Positions 8,166 to 29,261 of a DNA stretch of 64,000 nt are shown here, one piece after another. The notes beneath the pieces are model-generated. The model saw only the letters and a program-made list of their open reading frames with translations. It did not search any database and was not told the DNA's origin. Made by a program: the position numbers and the translations under genes. Source of the stretch: Podarcis cretensis (lineage: Eukaryota). The DNA lies in the NCBI GenBank assembly GCA_951804945.1, contig OX638150.1, forward strand, positions 29,140,001-29,204,000. The letters are read 5' to 3'. How positions within the stretch are numbered: position 1 is the stretch's first letter; each line of letters starts with the position of its first letter.

Positions 8166-8873
8166 CCATTAACAAATTAGAAATCTGAGGTATGTGAGGG
8201 AGGTGGATGGAGATCAGCAGGGCTGTGGGAAGTACAGGTAGGGCAACCAGGGGCCTATTTTATGTTAACCCAGCAGCATCCATCGCTGCCCCAACCTGGA
8301 CAAACTCTACATGTTAAAAGCAGAGAGGAAATGTGCTGTGCACCTCTGTCTCTTGCATGGCACGGTTGCCTCCGACTTCTACTTCTCCTCAGCTTCTCCA
8401 GGATGTAGGCCATGTAGGACCAGGCCAGGTAGTCCACATGGGTTGAAGAGCATCTCTGGTTCCTTCTCTTTCCTATATCATACCTGATCTCTGAGCAGAA
8501 GGGAGAGTGAAATGGGCTTGGGAGTGTTCCAGGAGTTGGGAAGGAGAGTAACCGACAGACCTTTTGTCTGAGAAAGTGTTTTTTAAGTGTATCGGTTGGA
8601 GCAGGGGGCGAACGTGCTTTGGTGCTGTCACAGCAAAAGGGTTCCTTAAGCCCAGAAGCTCTGGGCTAACTTTGAGCCTGTAACAAAGGAGGGGGGAAAG
8701 GTGAAATTGTAGTCAAGTGCCATTCTGCAGGGTTCTGCTCCTGGATGTCCTTTTTCCGTCTTCAACTAAATGCTTCCCTTTTAAAAAGAAAAAAGTACAT
8801 CTCCATCCTTGGCTTTCCCTGCCCTTCCTTTCTAATCTTTCCCCCCTGCTGTGTCCCATTTGTCTCCCTACAG

Positions 8874-9007
8874 ACGGCACTCCCTTGAGTGAGCTCTCCT
8901 GGTCTTCCTCTCTGGTGGTTGTGGCTGTTTCCTTCTCTGGGCTGTTCACATTCATCTTCCTCATGTTGGCCTGTCTGTGCTGCAAGAAGGGGGGCATTGG
9001 CTTCAAG
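8874..9007 (+). CDS. AATK: AATK/LMTK1 coding exon (human exon 2 equivalent): hydrophobic segment and MLACLCCKK palmitoylation motif
   Basis: cag|AC GGC ACT...TTC AAG|gtaagc, 134 nt. Encodes (D)GTPLSELSWSSSLVVVAVSFSGLFTFIFLMLACLCCKKGGIGFK, recognisably AATK. Confidence 0.96.
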
Positions 9008-9446
9008 GTAAGCACTGTGGGAAGCCCACCTCCTCCCTAGGGCTAGCTGTGTAGCAGCACCGTACTTTGAGGTAGAGAGGGAGGTCGTTCTCTGTCTCCT
9101 CGGGGTCTGTGATTGCAAGGAGAGGTGGCGGGTGCTCAGCATTGGGCTAGAACAAACCTCGCTCTGGGTAGCCCTTCTTAGAACACCCGTGGCAAGGAGG
9201 CAAGATTCGTGTGGGAGAGAAGCAGATTTTGGGGGCGCACCCTTGTTCACAAACCCTTGCTGCTCAGAGAAAGCAGGGGCAGAGAGAGAAGTGTGTTTGT
9301 GTGTGAAAGAGAGAGGGCAACAGCCAAGCAGCAGGCAAAGGATCTTAGCTGTGACAGGAATTCATCATGGGCTGAAGATGAAATGGGGTGGGCAAGGTTA
9401 GTGAGCAACAACATCTCCAACAAAGCCTGGTGTCAGGGGCTTGCTG

Positions 9447-9586
9447 AGAATCATAGAGTTGGAAGGGACCACAAGGGTCATCTAGTCGAACCCCCTGCAA
9501 TGCAGGAATCTTTCGCCCAATGTGGGGCTCGAACCCGTGACCCTGAGGTTGAGAATCTCACGCTCTACCAACTGAGCTAGCAAGCC
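9447..9586 (-). mobile_element. SINE with tRNA-Lys-like head and CR1-derived 3' tail
   Basis: Minus strand reads CTAGCTCAGTTGGTAGAGCGTGAGA...GGGTTCGAGCCCCACATTGGGCG, then CTAGATGACC...GGTCCCTTCCAACTCTATGATTCT. Confidence 0.75.
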
Positions 9587-10483
9587 TTAGAACAGAGCAA
9601 GGGATGCTTGTCTGGCATTCTGTTGGAAGTGGGGGTGTTGGGGTTGAAGGAGACCCTGTTGAGTCCTAACCAACCCAGAAGAAGAGGCGGATGGGCAAGT
9701 GGAAACATAGGAAGTTGCCTTACTCCGTTCGGACTGTTGTCTGCCTAGGCCTGAGTGCCAGCAGCTCACCAGGGTCTCAGGAGGGCCATTGCCACCACCT
9801 GCTTCCTGAGCCTTTTAAATGGAGAGGCCAGAGAGTGATCCAGGGACCTTCCACATGAAATGCAAGTGCTCTTCCAGTGAAATAACAGCTTCTGCTGTTG
9901 GGCCCAGAGGCAGTGGGCTTCAGTGTGATGGCTGCTGTTTCCCTGAGGCACTGTGTCAGAATTTAGACCAGGTTTGTACACCGATGCCCTTATTTGTACG
10001 CGTGACAAAGGTACAGTCCTGCAAGTGGGGCGATTTAGTAAACCAGAGCTGTCTTTAAAGCCTCCAGGAAGGTCAGTGGGGATTGTTGGTGGGGCTGAGC
10101 TCAGGAGGGAGGAGGGCATTCTCTCTGGAAGCCTCCTTTGCTCAGTCTGGTGCCGTGCTGTGAGGAGCAGGTAAGAAGAGCCCACAAAATACGAAAAGGC
10201 ACACAAAGAGAGTAGCAAAAGTCCATAGGTGCCCTTGAAACAACATCAAAGCGTGTTTCAGGTCCGATGGCTCTTCGTCAGCAGCAACCAAACAAGTTTT
10301 AATGAGGAGATAAGTGTTTGTGCAAACTGTCTGCCTTAACACGCTCTTCCGTGCACACCTTTTGCAGGTAAGGGCGCAAACTCCCAAGGCGCTTTCCTCT
10401 CCCTGACAGCATAAGCTCTGTCGACTTCTAACGGGGAGCTCAATGGTGCAGTAGGCATTTCAGGGTACTGAGATGGCCTAAGA

Positions 10484-10845
10484 CAGGGGTCCCCAAACTA
10501 AGGTCCACGGGCTGGATAAGGCCCGAGGGACTTGTTTATCCGGCCTGTAGCGAGCCCCACCACCTGCTCTTACCGGCTCTGTGCTGTGCAGCTGCTGACT
10601 TCCGGGTCGGAGGAGCACCGGAAATAGCTTGTGCGCATGCGCAAGCGTTATTTCCGGTGCACATCTGGGTTGGAGGAGGCCCGTGCACATGTGCACAAGC
10701 TATTTCTGGTGCTCCTCCAACCTGGAAGTGTGCCAGAAATAGCATGTGTGCATGCGTATGGGCATGTGCTCCCCTACCCTCTGGCCCACCATGTGATCGG
10801 CGCTGGAGACACCGGCCCAAGGCGTGGTAAGTTTGCTGACCCCTG
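10484..10845. mobile_element. Non-autonomous hAT (Charlie-like) DNA transposon
   Basis: CAGGGGTCCCCAAACT ... AGTTTGCTGACCCCTG termini. 8-bp flanks GCCTAAGA / TCCTAAGA (7/8). Confidence 0.85.
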
Positions 10846-11213
10846 TCCTAAGAGGAAGGATCTCTTTCTTTTGCCTCTTGTCTTGAAGAAAATACATGAG
10901 TCTTAGTTTGTGAGCCACACATGACATACCCTTCTTGCCAGAGTAGTGTCAGGGTGTCCCTTCTTAAATTCCCAGGCTGGTTGGCATCCTCATCCAGTCT
11001 TGGCGGTGGCCTGCCCTGGAATGCCCCACGAGGGAGTGGGCAGCGCCAGCCTGACCTCACAGGCACAGAATGTGCTGGAGAAATGTGTTGCTGAGATTCT
11101 TGCGGGGGCTCTTGGCAGCCAGGCCGTGGTGCAGCCGTGGGGTGCTGGAATGGAAGCTATGGACAGTTCCGTGGGCTGGCGGCTGTGCAGCACCGGCCAG
11201 GTTTTGCCGTGGG

Positions 11214-11255
11214 AACAATGAGGCGCTTCAGAGGCCCCTACGCTGCCTATATAGG
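11214..11255 (+). promoter_or_regulatory. Candidate internal AATK promoter: SOX motif (AACAATG) and TATA-like/CArG element (CCTATATAGG)
   Basis: AACAATG at 11214-11220 and CC(A/T)6GG at 11246-11255, just upstream of a candidate first exon. Motif evidence only. Confidence 0.4.
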
Positions 11256-11341
11256 GGGCGCAGGGAGGGTTTGCAAAGCAGCCTCCATGCTTTCCCTGTG
11301 GAAATGCTGCAGCAGCTCAAGGGCGTCATGGCACAAGGGTG

Positions 11342-11401
11342 ATGCTCACCCTTTCCTACCTGGTTGCCGGGGCAGCCTTCGGTGGGATAAAGTCCGTCCA
11401 G
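11342..11401 (+). CDS. AATK: Candidate alternative first coding exon of AATK (MLTLSYLVAGAAFGGIKSVQ)
   Basis: ATG at 11342, 20 codons, CAG|GTAACT donor in phase 0 matching the phase-0 acceptor at 14218. No transcript evidence. Confidence 0.5.
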
Positions 11402-13769
11402 GTAACTGGAAGTGCCTACTTGGCTTTTGCACGGAGTGAATGGGGAGGTGGGAGATGCTGCGGCCTCAAATTGCAGGTGGGGTGTGTGTGCATGTGTGGA
11501 TGGGGAGGCGGGCGCATCGAACTTTGAGTGCTATTGCCGGGGTTGGTGGTGTTGAAGGGCACTTCAGGGAGGGTTCATTTATTAACACTCTTTCTCTGGG
11601 CACTCTTGCCTAGAGCTGGAGAAGCGAATCCCGGGAGAAGAGGCTGAGGATGGTTTTGAGGTGTCTGCCCTGCACGGGGGCCAGCACAGTGCCAAAAACA
11701 GCCTGTAATGTAGAACTGGGGAACCCTGGGCAGCCCTCCCCCTGCCCCCTGACCAAGGTGAGGCTGCTTCTCCCTCAACTGTATTTATGACTGTGTCTCT
11801 CTCACTGGGGGCAGGGTGGAAGGAGCAGAGCAGCCGCCACTGGCCACACAAGCCGAGACAAAAGCAGGGGTACCAGCGTGGGACAATAAGCAGCCGGCCA
11901 AGGGCGGGGTGGGCACAATGGGCTGCGTTGCTCTGCATTCAGGTCCCCTGGGGCTTCCTAGCTTTCCCATGCAGAAATAGGACTGGGGGCAGAGGCCTGG
12001 AAGCTGTTGCGCCGGCCATTAACCTGCCCCCTAGCCCAGCCTTGTGCCCTCCAGATGCTGTTGGTTCCCAACTCCCATTCCCAACTCCCATCAGCCCCAG
12101 CCAGCATGGCCCAAGGGTCAGGGATGCTGGGAGTTGTAGTCCAGCAAAAAGCCAACAAATGGACACCAGGTGGGGAAAGCCAGCCTTAAACCTTTGTCGC
12201 TTTGCCTATGGGACTGAGCTCCATCTCTTGAGTCTGCAGAGAATCCTGGGCAGATGATGCTTTGCCAGTTTTTGCTGCTTCTGTCCTGTTCATCAAAGCT
12301 TTTCTCGCCAGCTGCACCGCTCATGGAGCGTCTGTGTTTCCAATGGGAATTGAAAATTGGCTGCCATTAAATGTCCTAGGAGCTGTTGCCCTGGATCCGT
12401 GAAACCAAGCTTGAGCTAGCAAACTACCCCCCCCCATCTCAATTTGTGTTTGTGTGTGTGTGTGTAAAGAAAGAGTGCGAGTAAGTGCACTGCTATCTCT
12501 GTCACCCCACCCCCCTAAGTTTCAGTGTTTGGATCTGGACGGGAGCGTACGAGCGGCTGCGCCCTTCACACGGCTGTGGCATGGTTCATGCGTGTGCTCA
12601 ATGGTGTATGTGGCTGCTTGAAGTTGAATTGCACCTGCACAGTCCCAGATGGCAAGGCTGTTTGCATGAAGCGGCTTCCCCATGCAGCTATCCCATCTAC
12701 AACCACCACCACTCTACAAGAACAGGGCATCGCTGAAGCTGCCCTGTCTGAGCGGAGGGAGGTCTGCTTCACACAAGTGGCTGGCTGTCTTGCTTGCTTG
12801 CTTGCTATTTCATAGAGCTGCATTGTGCAACTCCCATTTCAAGCTGTTATACCATAGGGATGAGCCAGGCCCGAGTGTGCGAGAGGGCTCTATAGGTCTG
12901 TGTTACTGGCCAATGTTTACTCTCCTCTTGCATATGGACACTACAGAGACTCCTAACAGTAACTCCCTCCCCCAGGGAACTCCAGGAATTGTTGTGGGGT
13001 GGGGTGGGGGGTAGCGGAGGAGACGGGGGAAAGAATTAGGCAATCTCTAACAGAGAATTCAAAGCTAACTCTTCAAAGGGCATTTCCCCCATTATCTTGG
13101 GTTGGCAATTAAAATGGTTAAAGCCAATATTGGTTTTAGTTCAAATTGGGCATATGTATGAGAAGGCTGTGCTTAGTGCTTTTGTTTTTCCATTGTGTGT
13201 AGCTCAAGGATGTTTATACATGTATTCCTCCCCTGGCTGTTTATGGGATGGGGGAATGTGTGTGCCTGTTCCTCCCCACCTGTGTGCTTGCTCCCTTGTA
13301 CAGAAGAACGCAAGGGAGTTGCCACCCACCACCTGGGTGCATTTTGGAACTAGGAAGCTGCCTTCTACCAGGTTAGGATAAAGAACAATGGCAGTAAAGA
13401 TCCTTAGAATTCAAGACATGAACAATGGCAAGACCCAGAATATGAAAATTGTATTCCATTATTCTTATGAGTAAGGTAAACTACATCAGCGAAGGTACAG
13501 AAACACAAAACCAAATGATACAAATCAGAGGAAAGCATGCCAGTAGAGAAAAATCCATTTTGCCTCCTCAATCTTTTTCAATTCTGCTTTCTCAATAGTC
13601 AGAATTGACTTTTTATCTACCTGTCTGCTGTCTTCTGAATTAAATTATTTAGTTTTGTGTTTCTGTATCTTACTTGGTGTGGTTTATGTTTTATAGATCA
13701 CCATTATAGTACAGTGGGTTTTTTTTTTATAGTCTGGGCCTTGTAATTGTGTATGCTTTGCTTCACATA

Positions 13770-13928
13770 ATGTTGGACTATTGGTCCATCTGGCTTATCT
13801 CATGCCAGTTGGCTGCATCTTCCCAAAATTCCAGGCAGGCAGCCTTTCCCCTCCTTACCTAGAAATGCCAGAGATTGAACCTGCCACCTTTGGCATGCAG
13901 AGCAGGTGCTCTGCTACAGAGCCTCAGC
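13770..13928 (-). mobile_element. Degenerate tRNA-derived SINE
   Basis: Minus strand has GCTCTGTAGCAGAGCACCTGCTCTGCATGC...GGTTCAATCTCTGGCATTTC head. Boundaries approximate. Confidence 0.55.
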
Positions 13929-14217
13929 TTGCCCCTTATTTATGGGTTCAGTACATGTATCTGTGCCTCTTCATCTGTGTTTGAGATGGCACCGATGATG
14001 ACAGTGATGACAGTGTTATAGAAGAGTAATGATTGCTTCACATGCATTATTGCAATAATCCTTACGTGACTGGCATTACGAGTACTGTATGATGATGGGG
14101 AATGCCTGCTTCCACCCTTCCCTTTTCTACATGTGTATAAAAATGTTTCCTTGCCCTGTGCTGGGCTCCTTTTTCTCTCTCCCTATCTGTCTTGCCCACC
14201 CCTATCCCCCACCCCAG

Positions 14218-14359
14218 GAATTTGATAATGCCGAGGGAGAAGAGTATGCTAGTGAATTCTCAGCCCAGGGCTCACCCGCTACCCAGAATGGCCCAGAAGT
14301 TTACATTCTGCCTCTCACCGAAGTCTCCTTGCCCATGTCCAGGCAACCTGGGCGCTCAG
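14218..14359 (+). CDS. AATK: AATK exon 3 equivalent
   Basis: cag|GAA TTT GAT...CGC TCA G|gtaag. EFDNAEGEEYASEFSAQGSPATQNGPEVYILPLTEVSLPMSRQPGRS. Confidence 0.96.
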
Positions 14360-15986
14360 GTAAGTTGCTGAACCCTCTGCATTTCGTTGCACCCTTTCAG
14401 TTTTAGCAACGAGGCACACTTGCAACACGCAAAATAAGAGCATGACCTTGGATTTTCACATGGCTAATCAAACCTGGAATCTCCGTTCTTGCAATAATGA
14501 GTATGGAACAGAAGTTCTGTTCTTGCAATAAGGAGTATGGATTAGAATCCCCCCCCCCATGAAAGTGGGCAGAAAACTCCTTCCTTTAACCTTCGTGATT
14601 TTGCACTTTTCACTATGGTTGAAAAGGTGTAATGGGTTGCCTATGTGCACCCTCAAAGCAACTATGTACTGACACATTTATTATGGCACTAAGACATTTG
14701 TTATGACATACGCTACCCTTGATTAGAGTGCCATGATAAATGTGTTAGTCTTTCAAGTCTCTCTTTTCTTTTTGTTGCAAGACGCTACTAATACAGCAAC
14801 CACTCTCTGGAAGTTTTCGTCATTCCCATTCAGTGATCTTACATATGAGTTGTTTCCTAGAGGAAGCTGTCACAGGTGTGCAGAGAAAAGTGAAGCAGGA
14901 GCAGTAGTGGTCACTACTATTGTTACCTGGTGCTTTTTGTAGAGTGATATAAACGAGAAGTCGAGGCCCAGCCTGCCCCTAGGAGCTTACAATCTCAAGA
15001 GAAGAGGCAGATGCGATCAGAAGAATGTGGACAGTGGAATTACACATCCTTATTTTATTTTATTCTAAAAACCTCTAACCTCAGGCTTAAGCATGTGATC
15101 TGCTGAAGAGTCGGAAGAAATGCAAAATAGCTTAGATGTTGTCTTTTGTAGGCATAGGAAGATGCAAAATCTAGAGCTGTGCAGAGCATACAACCAGAAC
15201 GCCAGATGTTCCGTGTAACACAGAAGCTCTCGTCCTTTTGCCAAAATATGTCCAAGAAAAATACACCTTAAGCTGTTGTATATTCCGTCTCATCCCACCG
15301 GGACCTAAGGCAGCAACAATTGCCCCTAATGAGCAGGCGATCTTAAAGCGGCCAAAACAAGGCAGTATGCTTTCGATGGTATGGATCCAAAGGTCACCAT
15401 AGGGGGGTGCAACCTCTGGGGCTCCCCAAGTGTCCATCCCCCCCACCTCCCAGCAAGATCAAAGCTCCAAGAGATCCCCTCCGTCTGCAGCTCTTTTAGC
15501 TCAGCTGTCTGCCATATATTGCAAGGCTCCCTCCCCACCTTCTCCTCCACACAATGGATGGTCTCATTCCTGCTGCCCACAGCCCACTTGCAGCTGCTTG
15601 GTGGATACTGTGTCTGGGTGGATCAAGTCCTCGTTCCAGTCATGGAGTTCAGTTCCCTTCGCCCACATCTGTACTCTACGATGTAGATGCTTCTGTTGCC
15701 ACTCACAGCAGCTGCAGCGGGGGGGGGGGGGCGGCAGGGCTGGTTTTATGTGCGCAGTGTGTGGGTTTGTTTGCAACTTCCTGGGAGCACCTAGCAATGC
15801 TGCTTTCTGCCCCTCCAAGGCCCTGCCATACATGAGTTGTTCTTCATCACAGGCATTGTCACATCTAAAGAGTCTGTATGCAGAGCGTATTGTATGATGG
15901 CACCTGCCAGTTATGCGTTTGGGGGCTTTTGCTCCCCCTGCACCTACTTCAGAATCCTCTGCCTGCCCGCCCCCCAAGGGAAGATA

Positions 15987-21852: not shown

Positions 21853-21986
21853 GGTGACCTGAAGGGCTACCTGCGGAGCTGCCATGCGGCCGAGGCGCTG
21901 GCACCAGACCCCCTCACCTTGCAACGTATGGCCTGCGAGGTGTCCTGCGGCCTGCTGCATCTTCACCGCAACAACTATGTGCACAG
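21853..21986 (+). CDS. AATK: AATK exon 7 equivalent
   Basis: cag|GGT GAC CTG...CAC AG|gtgag. [45 protein letters not shown]. Confidence 0.97.
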
Positions 21987-22968: not shown

Positions 22969-23041
22969 CTCCCCAACAATATCCTGGTGCTGAGTGAGTG
23001 GCACTCAAGAGACTCCAGCATCAGTGATTTTGTTGAAGAGG
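22969..23041 (+). ncRNA. MIR338: miR-338 precursor (5p 22975-22996; 3p 23014-23035)
   Basis: Matches the mature sequences AACAATATCCTGGTGCTGAGTG and TCCAGCATCAGTGATTTTGTTG in a fold-back, inside an AATK intron as in mammals. Confidence 0.97.
22971..23038 (-). ncRNA. MIR3065: miR-3065-like antisense hairpin
   Basis: Reverse complement of 23014-23036 is TCAACAAAATCACTGATGCTGGA (mammalian miR-3065-5p). Expression in this species unknown. Confidence 0.45.
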
Positions 23042-23599
23042 CTGAGCTCTGCCATCTTCTGAGGATGGGAGTCCTCCTCCTTTCAGGGAAGTGCACTGAG
23101 CTACAAACTGGATGTCCCGAGGCTGAATTTTGCCTCTGCCATGATCTCACTTTGTGGTCTTAGATGAGTCCGTCCCCCATTCCCACCTACCCCTCTCGCT
23201 CCCTAAAGGGACAAAGGTGTTTTTAGGAACTAGGCTTTGCAAGTCTGCACAGGCAAGAGCAGATCGAAACGCTACATCCTTCAAAGATACAGCTTTGCTG
23301 GAAGGACATTGTTGGGGAATCAAGAGGGAGGCAAGCAGTTGACCGTGGGTTTAGACTGCTGTCTGTGATGCTCAACCAGTGGCCAGCCAGAGATTCATTA
23401 TTGGTCTTGGTGAGCTAAGCAAACCCAATGAGGGCATATTTGGGTTTCTGCCCTGGCACATCTAGTCAGCCCTTTCCCACTCCCCGGCCCCATAGCTCCT
23501 GTTGGCCTGATCTGGGTCACAATGCATGAGCTCCCTTGGCCAGCCCATTGCTTCACGCCTTCCGCTGTGTAATCTTCGCTGGGCGTTTCTTTTGTCTAG

Positions 23600-23684
23600 T
23601 GACCTGGCGCTGCGGAACTGCTTACTCACGGCTGACCTGACAGTCAAAATCGGCGACTACGGCCTCTCTCACTGCAAATACAAA
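23600..23684 (+). CDS. AATK: AATK exon 8 equivalent (catalytic loop DLALRN, DYG motif)
   Basis: tag|T GAC CTG GCG...TAC AAA|gtaag. (S)[28 protein letters not shown]; HSD and DYG are typical of LMTK kinases. Confidence 0.97.
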
Positions 23685-26293: not shown

Positions 26294-29261
26294 GTACGAG
26301 GTGATGCAGTTTTGCTGGCTGCAACCAGAGCAGCGCCCCACTGCTGAGGAGGTGCACCTCCTGCTCTCGTACCTGTGTGCCAAGGGAGCGTCAGAGGCTG
26401 AGGAGGAGTTTGAGCGGCGCTGGAACTCCATGAAGCCTGGCAGCGGCGGTGGTGGTGGTGGTGGAGGAGGAGGCTCGGGCTCGGGCTCCAGCCACGTGGG
26501 TGTTGAGCTGTCGTCCTTCCCCCTCCTGGAACATTTCTCCAACGATGGCGACGACGTCCTGACCGTCATGGAGACGAGCCACGGTCTGAACTTTGAGTAC
26601 AAGTGGGACCAAGGGAAGACTGAGCACCTGCCGGCCTCGGCCATGAGCCCTCGTGACGCCGCGCGTTACCACGAGCTCTACTACGCCACCAGCGGCAGCA
26701 GCGGCGGAAGAGGGGACGGCAGGCACCTCAGCCTGGGGGTCTCGCCCTCCTGCTACGAGTGCAAAGTGCAGGGCTGCCCTGGCCTGCACACGCCGGGTGT
26801 GGTGCCTGTGCTGAGCGCCCACAGCCCCTCCCTGAACAGCGAGTACTACATCCGCATCGAGGAGGCTGCCTCCGAGGGCAGCGGGACGGACCTTGACTAC
26901 ACCATGTGCTCCTACAGCCCGGAGTTTGGCCGCCCCTCCCACTGGCAAGCCAAGGAGGGCTGCTACGAGTCGAACAGCAGCCCCACTGTCTCGCTCACCA
27001 TGGAGCCCCTGCTGGGGCATTCTGGTGCACATGGGGACAGCGGCCACTGGGAGCCCCCTGACTACTACTCCTATGGAGGGCAAGGGGACAAGGAGGCATC
27101 GCCGTACTACGAGGCCTCCGTGAAAGACGGCCCCGAGGACTACCTGCTTGAGGAGCACGGGGCTTCCGAGTGGTCTGTGGCAGCTCCGCAGAAGAGCATA
27201 TTTGCTGACCCGCTTGGTGTTTCACCCTCGGTGGGCTACGCCTACAAGGAGGAGGCCGCAGTGGCAGACTCGGTCACTCTGGAACTGGGAGAGGAGGAGG
27301 AGGAGGAAGAGGAGGAGGAGGAGAACTCGTGTGGCAGCCCTGGGAGCGAAGGGGATGAGAACGACGGGTCCCCTTCCTCCAGCAAGCACTGGACGTCCAA
27401 CACCTCCGCCAATAACAACAGCTGCCACCTGCTGCCGCCGTGTGAGCCACCTGCCAAAGACAGCTGGTGCTACCGCCACATGATCACTTTCCAGGGGCTC
27501 ATGGCAGAGCCGCTGTGTACTGTACCCCGTGACGGCCCCACGCTAGGCATCGAGGACTTGCGAGCAGCCCTTTTGGGTGAGGAGCGGGTGGCATCATCTC
27601 AGACGGGCTCCCCCTGCCCAGACACCGACTTGCCTTCAGAGGAACGAGCATCAGCCGAGGTTGCCAGCGTAGAGATCGGCGCAGGCGATGCCACAAATCC
27701 CTTGACTGAGAGCGGGGTGGAGTGCCTCCTGGCCGCCACCACTCCACCACCACCAGGGGACACGGATTCAGTGGCGTCAACGCTGGAACCTGTCAACAAC
27801 ACGGACGGAGGGGATGCCACCGTGCCAGAGGAGGAGGCACTAGGAACTGGGGAAGACACCGTCGTGGTGGAAGAGGCCTCGGCCGAATGCTCCCCCAAGG
27901 TGCCACGAGAGATCAACGTGGACAGTGGCAAGAACACCACGACCAGTGAGCAGGACAGGACACCAGACAAGACGGTTTCGAGCGCCAGCTTCCCTGACTT
28001 GGATGAGGCCAGTGACGAGGACACGGCTGAGCTCACATCCGGGGTCTTCACTGACTTCCCAGTTGATTGTACCGAGCGGCAGGACGTCATCGTCACCCTC
28101 AAGTCCTTGCAGAAGCAGGTGGAGACCCCTGACTCGCTGGAGTCGCTGGACATCCCCTCCACCACCAGCTCCTGCGAGGCGTTCAGCCCCACAGCCTACG
28201 TGCCCTCGAGCCAGCCTAAAGCCTTAGACAGCGGCTACGACACAGAGAACTACGAGTCGCCTGAATTTGTCCTGAAGGAGCCTCACGAGCCACGGGAGCC
28301 CGAGGCCTTCACCCAGCTAGAAAAGGCACCAGACGGCCCCGAGGGCCCAGCCACAGAGCTGAGCCTCTCCAGCTCCTTCAGCGCTGAGCTGCAGGGCTTA
28401 GACGAGAAGAACCCTTACCGTGACTCGGCCTACTTCTCCGATTATGATACCGAAGGGGGGACTCGGGAGGATGGGGAAGGGGACAGTGATGGTTCTGAGG
28501 GGCACGAGCCAGAGCTCCCCCAGACGGACATTGGAGAGTTGGGGAAGGACCCCGCCCAAAATAGCTCAGGTGAGTCTCGGCCTACCTTGCTTGAGCCCAC
28601 TTGCCCACAGGAAGACGGCATGGGGTGTACCTTTCCTCCAGCGACTAGCGACCAGGGCACGGGGACAAGCCTGTCGCAAGAGCTGGTAGTGAATGGAGTC
28701 ACTGTTGCTGAGCTGGACTCATCCAGAGGCAAGAGCGGCGAGGCTGTTGCCCTGCCCCAGGTGCCGCCCCCCGCCACCAGGTCCTTTTTCTTGTCTCCTG
28801 TGGTTGCGAGTCCATATGTGCCGAATGGGGCTTGTGAGGGAGATGCGGGGACGGGGAGCAATGCAGTGGCAAGGGCAGCAGAGGAACCTGGGGAAGGGCA
28901 GGAACGATGCTGCCCTGGCGAGCAGCCCCAGAGCAGCCCTGGGCTCTCGCTGGACCTTTCGGCGGTGCCCTCTCGGCATCCGTCTGTCCCTGCCGAGCTC
29001 GAGGAAGAGGAGGACGACACGGAGGACAGCGATGAGTCGGACGAGGAGCTGCGGTGCTACAACATCCAGGACCAGAGCGAGGAGAGCGAGGAGGAGCTGC
29101 CCGCTGTGCCCATTGTGGTGGCCGAGAGCCACAGCGCCCGCAACCTGCGCAGCCTGCTCAAGATGCCCAGCCTGCTGGTGGAGACCTTCTGCGATGACCT
29201 CGAACGCAAGAAGAAAGCCGTCTCCTTCATTGAAGATGTCACCGTCTACCTCTTTGACCAG
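26294..29261 (+). CDS. AATK: AATK large exon 11 equivalent (end of kinase domain and long acidic tail with PP1-docking KAVSF)
   Basis: cag|G TAC GAG GTG ATG...TTT GAC CAG|gtgag, 2968 nt open. Contains YEVMQFCWLQPEQRP, DSGYDTENYESPEF, NPYRDSAYFSDYD, RSLLK and KKAVSF...VTVYLFDQ. Confidence 0.98.

Follow-up and report, generated by a model that had tools for sequence, protein, structure and literature searches.

The AATK locus and its intron 2

The DNA analysed here, a stretch of 64,000 nucleotides that is called the window below, contains on its plus strand most of the lizard AATK/LMTK1 gene. Comparison of Podarcis muralis LMTK1 with the window gave 92% for the large exon and 95-100% for several small exons, and exon 1 of the long form of AATK was not found within the 64-kb window. 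The features of the gene that are needed for the argument are as follows.

8874..9007, plus strand: AATK exon 2, encoding the transmembrane segment and the MLACLCC palmitoylation motif; skipped in the new form
11275..11341, plus strand: presumed 5' leader (start inferred) of the alternative first exon, containing three ATGs, at 11287, 11304, and 11328; 11288-11341 aligns with a 5' extension from Crotalus
11342..11401, plus strand: coding portion, MLTLSYLVAGAAFGGIKSVQ, of the alternative first exon, 20 codons with a phase-0 donor at 11402; orthologous N-termini in 32 of 377 proteins
11614..11757, plus strand: 48-codon cassette exon of squamates (SWRSES...CPLTK); its acceptor and donor are proper, and both borders are in phase 0
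14218..14359, plus strand: AATK exon 3, shared, with a serine in QGSP that corresponds to Ser34, the Cdk5 site (described in a passage of PMC7344150), and a downstream Met, that of MSRQPGRS
22970..23039, plus strand: miR-338 hairpin (Rfam RF00686, 85.2 bits), lying within intron 7 and 3' of the new start

The exons at 21853-21984 and 23598-23684 flank miR-338 and thus define intron 7, and a passage of PMC3281898 places rat miR-338 in intron 7 of Aatk likewise. Just 3' of the kinase domain, at about 26440-26480, the large exon encodes 12 consecutive glycines together with Ser-Gly repeats. Reads pile up heavily on interspersed repeats at 9447-9579, 10480-10850, 12081-12147, and 13865-13920, the first of which is tRNA-like (Rfam 29 bits) and is probably a SINE.

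The starting point of this study was a sequence-only reading, which had proposed that intron 2 holds an internal promoter and an alternative first exon. All the letters it named are present: AACAATG at 11214-11220, CCTATATAGG at 11246-11255, the ATG at 11342, and the donor CAG/GTAACT, which sets the end of the exon at 11401. Six donor-like sites occur in intron 2, and an open in-frame ATG lies upstream of three of them (11401, 11757, and one that closes a frame of three codons). The acceptor of exon 3, a pyrimidine tract and AG before 14218, is also in phase 0. Three further ATGs, which the sequence-only reading does not mention, precede it at 11287, 11304, and 11328. The context of the ATG at 11328 is strong and that of ATG 11342 mediocre, and the frame of 11304 and 11328 ends at a TGA overlapping the main ATG. 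These three upstream starts, one with a strong context, could curtail translation in this lizard; the residues of the Crotalus 5' extension rule out an ATG at the positions matching 11304 and 11328.

Conservation of the start peptide and splice routes

The protein set comprised 377 sequences, taken from the 120 listed of 292 matches to exon 3, from searches with the N-termini of the gecko and warthog isoforms, and from 30 clusters with at most 15 members each. The start of exon 3 was visible in 321 of the 377 proteins, and the peptide was recognized in 32, by pattern in 31 and by eye in a bat protein (P0333). It is followed directly by exon 3 in 26 of these 32 proteins and via the cassette in one, whereas four bird-like contigs and a hippo protein read through an intron that is short, the hippo exon lying 92 codons before exon 3. 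Exon-2 sequence stands in front of the full peptide in none of the 32. The direct joins, which are mostly documented by predicted models in protein databases that can contain in-frame forms only, come from two newt-like Logan contigs and from 18 named species ranging from newt to mouse: the amphibian Pleurodeles; the squamates Heteronotia, Paroedura, and Crotalus; the turtle Mauremys, whose peptide is divergent; the crocodilians Gavialis and Crocodylus; the birds Anas, Oxyura, Gallus, Pitangus, and Pseudopodoces; and the mammals Phacochoerus, Lagenorhynchus, Kogia, Panthera, Myotis, and Mus. One of the newt-like contigs (P0029) encodes a whole protein of 1654 amino acids with the alternative start, and because that full protein is contained in 7004 bases the contig must derive from a spliced transcript.

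In tblastn searches of the 64-kb window, the peptides of gecko, crocodilian, newt, duck, chicken, warthog, and mouse all found their best match at 11342 (E 6e-11 to 2e-3), and the divergent turtle peptide gave no match there. Alignment of 18 orthologues with the window peptide showed M1, L7, and A12 in all 18 and L2, T3, and Y6 in 17; the other changes are mostly conservative, and the peptide lengths, 20, 23, 24, or 28 codons, vary only after residue 14. Judged from these alignments, the coding part is conserved far beyond chance, and the pattern of substitution together with the late change in length is that of a coding exon on which selection acts, although the databases can hold in-frame forms only. 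The sequence-only reading had made its proposal depend on conservation of the ATG, frame, and donor in relatives, and this was clearly found, as a homologous peptide opens LMTK1 from newts to mice. Its central claim, an alternative first coding exon in frame with exon 3 that drops the transmembrane segment and the palmitoylated cysteines of exon 2, is thereby borne out. The form with the peptide was found in none of the five Podarcis muralis members, in none of the 15 listed of 18 Anolis members, and in none of the marsupial, lemur (five), and lungfish (two) members listed. All things considered, 11342-11401 is very likely a real coding first exon of AATK.

The closest annotated counterpart is isoform 4 of mouse LMTK1 (NP_001389718.1, a curated-type RefSeq accession, and also the predicted XP_006532055.1), which begins MLTLCYLIARCAGG. 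Its orthologous first exon, MLTLCYLIARCAGGTRLALWQGK, is joined to exon 3 and has its best match in the window at 11342, but it encodes 23 rather than 20 residues and has gained two cysteines that are absent in the lizard. The window exon is therefore the lizard orthologue of an annotated, apparently unstudied mouse isoform; no paper naming NP_001389718.1 was found in the literature searched. Nearer relatives keep the 20-codon length as well: isoforms X4 and X5 of Heteronotia binoei (XP_060108198 and XP_060108199) and X1 of Gavialis (XP_019371253) have 14-16 of 20 residues identical to the window peptide. These reptile isoforms are predicted models, and the form is absent from the closest lacertid records compared.

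Both splice routes open to the new exon are represented by predicted models in Heteronotia binoei. The sequence-only reading had predicted a junction from 11401 to 14218, and that direct join is annotated in orthologues, but a second route from 11401 to 11614, through the cassette, was overlooked. Because gecko isoform X4 joins the new first exon to the cassette, two junctions are expected from 11401, one to 14218 and one to 11614. In squamate models the cassette adds 48 residues ahead of exon 3, placed after either exon 2 or the alternative first exon, and the lizard copy is 100% identical to Podarcis models and 96% identical to those of Hemicordylus. It was not seen among the turtle, crocodilian, bird, and mammal models compared. 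The cassette is nearly invariant across gecko, snake, iguanian, skink, and lacertid models, encodes four cysteines, and has an in-frame ATG at 11650 (MVLRCLPC...), at which one Paroedura model (P0371) starts. Unrelated inserts of 24 amino acids in marsupials and 43 in lungfish occur at the same junction.

Four of the 24 listed read runs were aligned to 8800-14450, all from relatives and none labelled as RNA: contigs of X1 and X11 and raw reads of X20 and X22. Depth was nil over 11068-11445 and fell mostly on repeats, and no joint was seen at the exon borders or at 11401. In the two raw runs exons 2 and 3 had no depth either, so the gene itself appears silent there. One X1 contig starts 24 letters before its exon 3 match, and a metagenome match to exon 3 at one locus was dismissed as chance, since it lies in an apparent bacterial gene. 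Contigs from two of the relatives' runs span the cassette donor unspliced within 11576-11850, that of X1 with no differences over 218 letters and that of X11 with a depth of 90, where exon 3 has 18, and with a run of A behind it. Since these contigs cross the donor, conservation of the DNA reaches into the intron past the cassette, and the stretch 11576-11850 may double as an enhancer or as a separate RNA end.

Promoter motifs and SOX10

Four stretches of intron 2 bear on the question of how the new exon is transcribed.

10976..11128, plus strand: upstream intronic stretch that aligns, with apparent frame shifts, with the N-terminus of a model from the iguanian Phrynosoma (P0012, E 5e-6)
11214..11220, plus strand: candidate SOX site, consensus AACAATG; the motif is frequent in the window
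11246..11255, plus strand: CCTATATAGG, both TATA-like (one mismatch to TATAWAWR) and a perfect CArG box; likely core promoter with a predicted start near 11275-11280
11840..11925, plus strand: motif cluster with SOX-type motifs (GACAAAAG and ACAAT twice), the MYRF consensus GTACCAG at 11870-11876, and a GC box; candidate enhancer

Taken by themselves, the motifs do not reach significance. AACAAT is found 45 times in the 64 kb, five of these in intron 2, CArG boxes number three against 6.8 expected, and the pair of SOX and TATA motifs at the given spacing, a pattern chosen post hoc, occurs once in the window and also in 12 of 100 shuffles. Thus the SOX site at 11214 that the sequence-only reading had singled out is present, but at a frequency that does not exceed chance. 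The same applies to the counts for the TATA/CArG box, although the box seems to be kept in rattlesnake and ruddy duck, as indicated indirectly by a trace in their proteins. In one frame of the window the box reads CLYRG, and LYRG occurs once across the three plus-strand frames; of the 377 proteins only two contain LYRG, and both instances are in 5' extensions of the alternative first exon, from Crotalus (as CLYRG) and Oxyura, at 107 and 134 nt before the ATG, respectively, compared with 94 in the window. This trace is an exact word observed post hoc, and in whole-segment comparison Crotalus ranks 8th of 174 and Oxyura 143rd of 180. These extensions cross the TATA box as coding sequence, which speaks against a TATA role, since a real extension would place the start further upstream.

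Upstream of the box, 10976-11128 is likely promoter-proximal regulatory DNA; it is probably non-coding, and the Phrynosoma model uses it as a coding start. A contig from a relative matches 10895-11045 with three differences. Several likenesses were tried and discarded. Equating "MAHKG" of Phrynosoma with the ATG at 11328 was dropped as it maps near 11020, the resemblance of jaguar AYTGG to AYIGG of the window, seen when mammalian 5' extensions were compared with the TATA region, was a likeness by eye that stands unranked in the window-wide test, and a rat Aatk ChIP primer (PMC9723594) had no match in the window within three mismatches, its 10-base part found by eye at about 11877 being regarded as chance. 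The cluster at 11840-11925, in which the MYRF consensus occurs once, exactly, on the minus strand, is by its motif content a better candidate for an enhancer responding to SOX10, MYRF, and KLF than the single SOX site at 11214.

Eight start clusters are listed for rat Aatk, and the major pair consists of 8250 and 8249, the latter 3.1 kb downstream of the former (PMC7430845 supplement 1). Each reaches about 47 RPM in nerve, the log2 fold changes without SOX10 are -10.4 and -12.3, and a SOX10 ChIP peak covers 8249, a cluster 126 bp wide (PMC7430845). AATK is also one of the genes for which SOX10-dependent starts are assigned to differing coding sequences (PMC7430845 supplement 2); the main text of that paper is silent on Aatk and describes SOX10-dependent starts as not enriched for TATA. 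Supposing that LMTK1A starts at 8250, near exon 2, and that mammalian intron 2 measures about 3 kb, 8249 would fall near the 3' end of intron 2, a position that fits the new exon because the hippo exon is only 92 codons before exon 3. The statement in the sequence-only reading on a SOX10-driven internal start in rodents is supported indirectly by the SOX10-dependent Aatk starts in rat Schwann cells; the identity of 8249 with the new exon is something we infer. Passages of a review state that SOX10 activates Aatk and miR-338 (PMC8269442), and at a rodent intronic Aatk enhancer MYRF and KLF are described, in passages of PMC7026603 and PMC9723594, as acting together with SOX10. That element lies inside the gene that hosts miR-338, and the MYRF and KLF motifs of the lizard cluster at 11840-11925; the passages on the rodent element give neither the peptide nor a link to the new exon. 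A SOX10-driven glial promoter of the new exon is, in our judgment, probable.

The N-terminal peptide and the role of the new form

In passages of the 2020 and 2024 reviews, LMTK1 has only two isoforms, the palmitoylated LMTK1A and the transmembrane LMTK1B, and its regulation and human isoforms are described as still open (PMC7344150, PMC11550312). Both use exon 2 with Cys4, Cys6, and Cys7, and the roles of the palmitoylated cysteines and of the Cdk5 serine are treated in a passage of PMC7344150. LMTK1A, LMTK1B, and the new form come from one gene, share exon 3 onward and the Cdk5 site, and differ only in how the N-terminus contacts the membrane. In contrast to the two known isoforms, the new form skips exon 2, and with it the three cysteines; the window peptide has no cysteine, and the first 14 residues of the sauropsid peptides are likewise free of it. 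No description of this N-terminus was found in the literature searched, which was mostly without subscription papers.

The sequence-only reading had supposed a signal- or anchor-like peptide, and this part of it is not supported. The best 19-residue hydropathy is 1.35 for the window peptide and 0.48-1.14 for eight orthologues, compared with 2.56 for the exon-2 segment, so that the peptide is too weakly hydrophobic for a signal peptide or a membrane-spanning anchor; a hydrophobic segment of about 19-21 residues, as in LMTK1B or a signal-anchor, is absent from the peptide, and position 10 is often basic (eight of the 19 peptides have Arg there, and ten have either Arg or Lys). AlphaFold2, given a newt-like fragment with 18 sequences, predicted a single helix over residues 3-13 at low confidence (pLDDT about 65), and positions 3, 10, and 14 share one narrow polar face. 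Sauropsid peptides have a low hydrophobic moment of 0.01-0.22, with 0.17 for the window and 0.01 for the crocodilian peptide. Starts with ML or MF suit acetylation by NatC, and the invariant ML/MF start of the peptides would suit it. On balance we slightly favor a short hydrophobic helix with a basic linker that would bind either a membrane surface or a partner protein.

Taken together, these findings are best explained if the conserved 20-residue start peptide of tetrapods belongs to an alternative first exon of AATK that is probably driven by SOX10 in myelinating glia and whose predicted helix would replace the lipid and transmembrane anchor, a reading to which we assign a probability of roughly 65%. 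Its observed part consists of the ATG, the open frame, the phase-0 donor, and, in 18 named species, orthologous N-termini that run into exon 3. Transcription would begin about 30 nt past the TATA-like box, near 11275-11280, and the transcript would be spliced from 11401 to 14218 or from 11401 to 11614 and from 11757 to 14218, routes that are annotated in gecko and predicted for the lizard. Given the order of the gene, such transcripts would contain miR-338 and retain the Cdk5 site and the kinase domain while lacking exon 2. Residues 1-13 are predicted to form the hydrophobic helix, followed by a variable basic linker, and might bind a membrane surface or a partner without palmitoylation, so that the kinase would be placed differently from that of LMTK1A and LMTK1B. 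A bolder version, which we offer tentatively and consider somewhat doubtful, is that a third, glia-specific LMTK1 of tetrapods arises from a SOX10/miR-338 promoter, that its acetylated 13-residue helix, retained since amphibians diverged, docks the kinase on another membrane or partner than the palmitoylated neuronal forms, possibly at mitochondria, and that the role of AATK in myelination is the role of this form.

Other explanations accept the exon but read its purpose or its control differently. The promoter might be non-glial, either neuronal or driven by SRF through the CArG box, with the SOX10-dependent starts of rodents lying elsewhere in the gene. The box is indeed a perfect CArG, and the SOX site is single and its motif common; we nevertheless consider this rather unlikely, because of two rat starts one lies 3.1 kb inside the other and depends strongly on SOX10, which would suit a mammalian intron 2 of about 3 kb, and because the hippo exon is situated merely 92 codons before exon 3. 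It is less likely still that the main job of the exon is to start the primary transcript of miR-338, with ribosomes mostly using the exon-3 Met (MSRQPGRS) to make an unanchored kinase. The three upstream ATGs and the mediocre context at 11342 would agree with that, as would several models opening at the exon-3 Met (e.g. Podarcis X5, P0169) and the induction of miR-338 by SOX10 through Aatk described in passages of PMC8269442. Against it stands conservation at the level of residues, with conservative changes, from newt to mouse; the rattlesnake lacks the ATGs of 11304 and 11328, and the protein form is curated in mouse RefSeq.

Mitochondrial presequences are amphipathic helices that are rich in Arg and free of acidic residues, and the Leu/Ala/Ser/Arg-rich, acid-free composition of the peptide raises the possibility, improbable in our view, that it would direct a form of the kinase to mitochondria. 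Acidic residues are absent from 16 of the 19 peptides, and of the six mammalian ones four have a hydrophobic moment of 0.44-0.45 and all have two to four basic residues; against this, the window peptide has one Lys and the low moment given above, that of the crocodilian peptide is close to nil, and it is the hydrophobic core rather than charge that is conserved. The reading of the exon as an internal cassette entered from exon 2 through an acceptor was rejected as highly implausible. An AG at 11253-11254 follows 13 pyrimidines in 20 positions and is in frame with the donor, and in one model from chicken (P0284) exon 2 is spliced to a point halfway along the exon, at the equivalent of 11372-11401, but Met is invariant in all 18 orthologues and exon 2 never precedes the full peptide in the 32 proteins. 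The chicken join suggests occasional use of an internal acceptor.

An alternative promoter is an ordinary event, and the form is already present in mouse RefSeq, which limits the surprise of the present findings. A third N-terminus of LMTK1 that extends from newt to mouse and lacks the anchor of exon 2 is nonetheless a concrete construct for testing. If the form with the alternative first exon is the one driven by SOX10, knock-outs and antibodies directed against exon 2 would miss glial LMTK1, and the glial kinase may reside in a compartment other than that of the neuronal forms.
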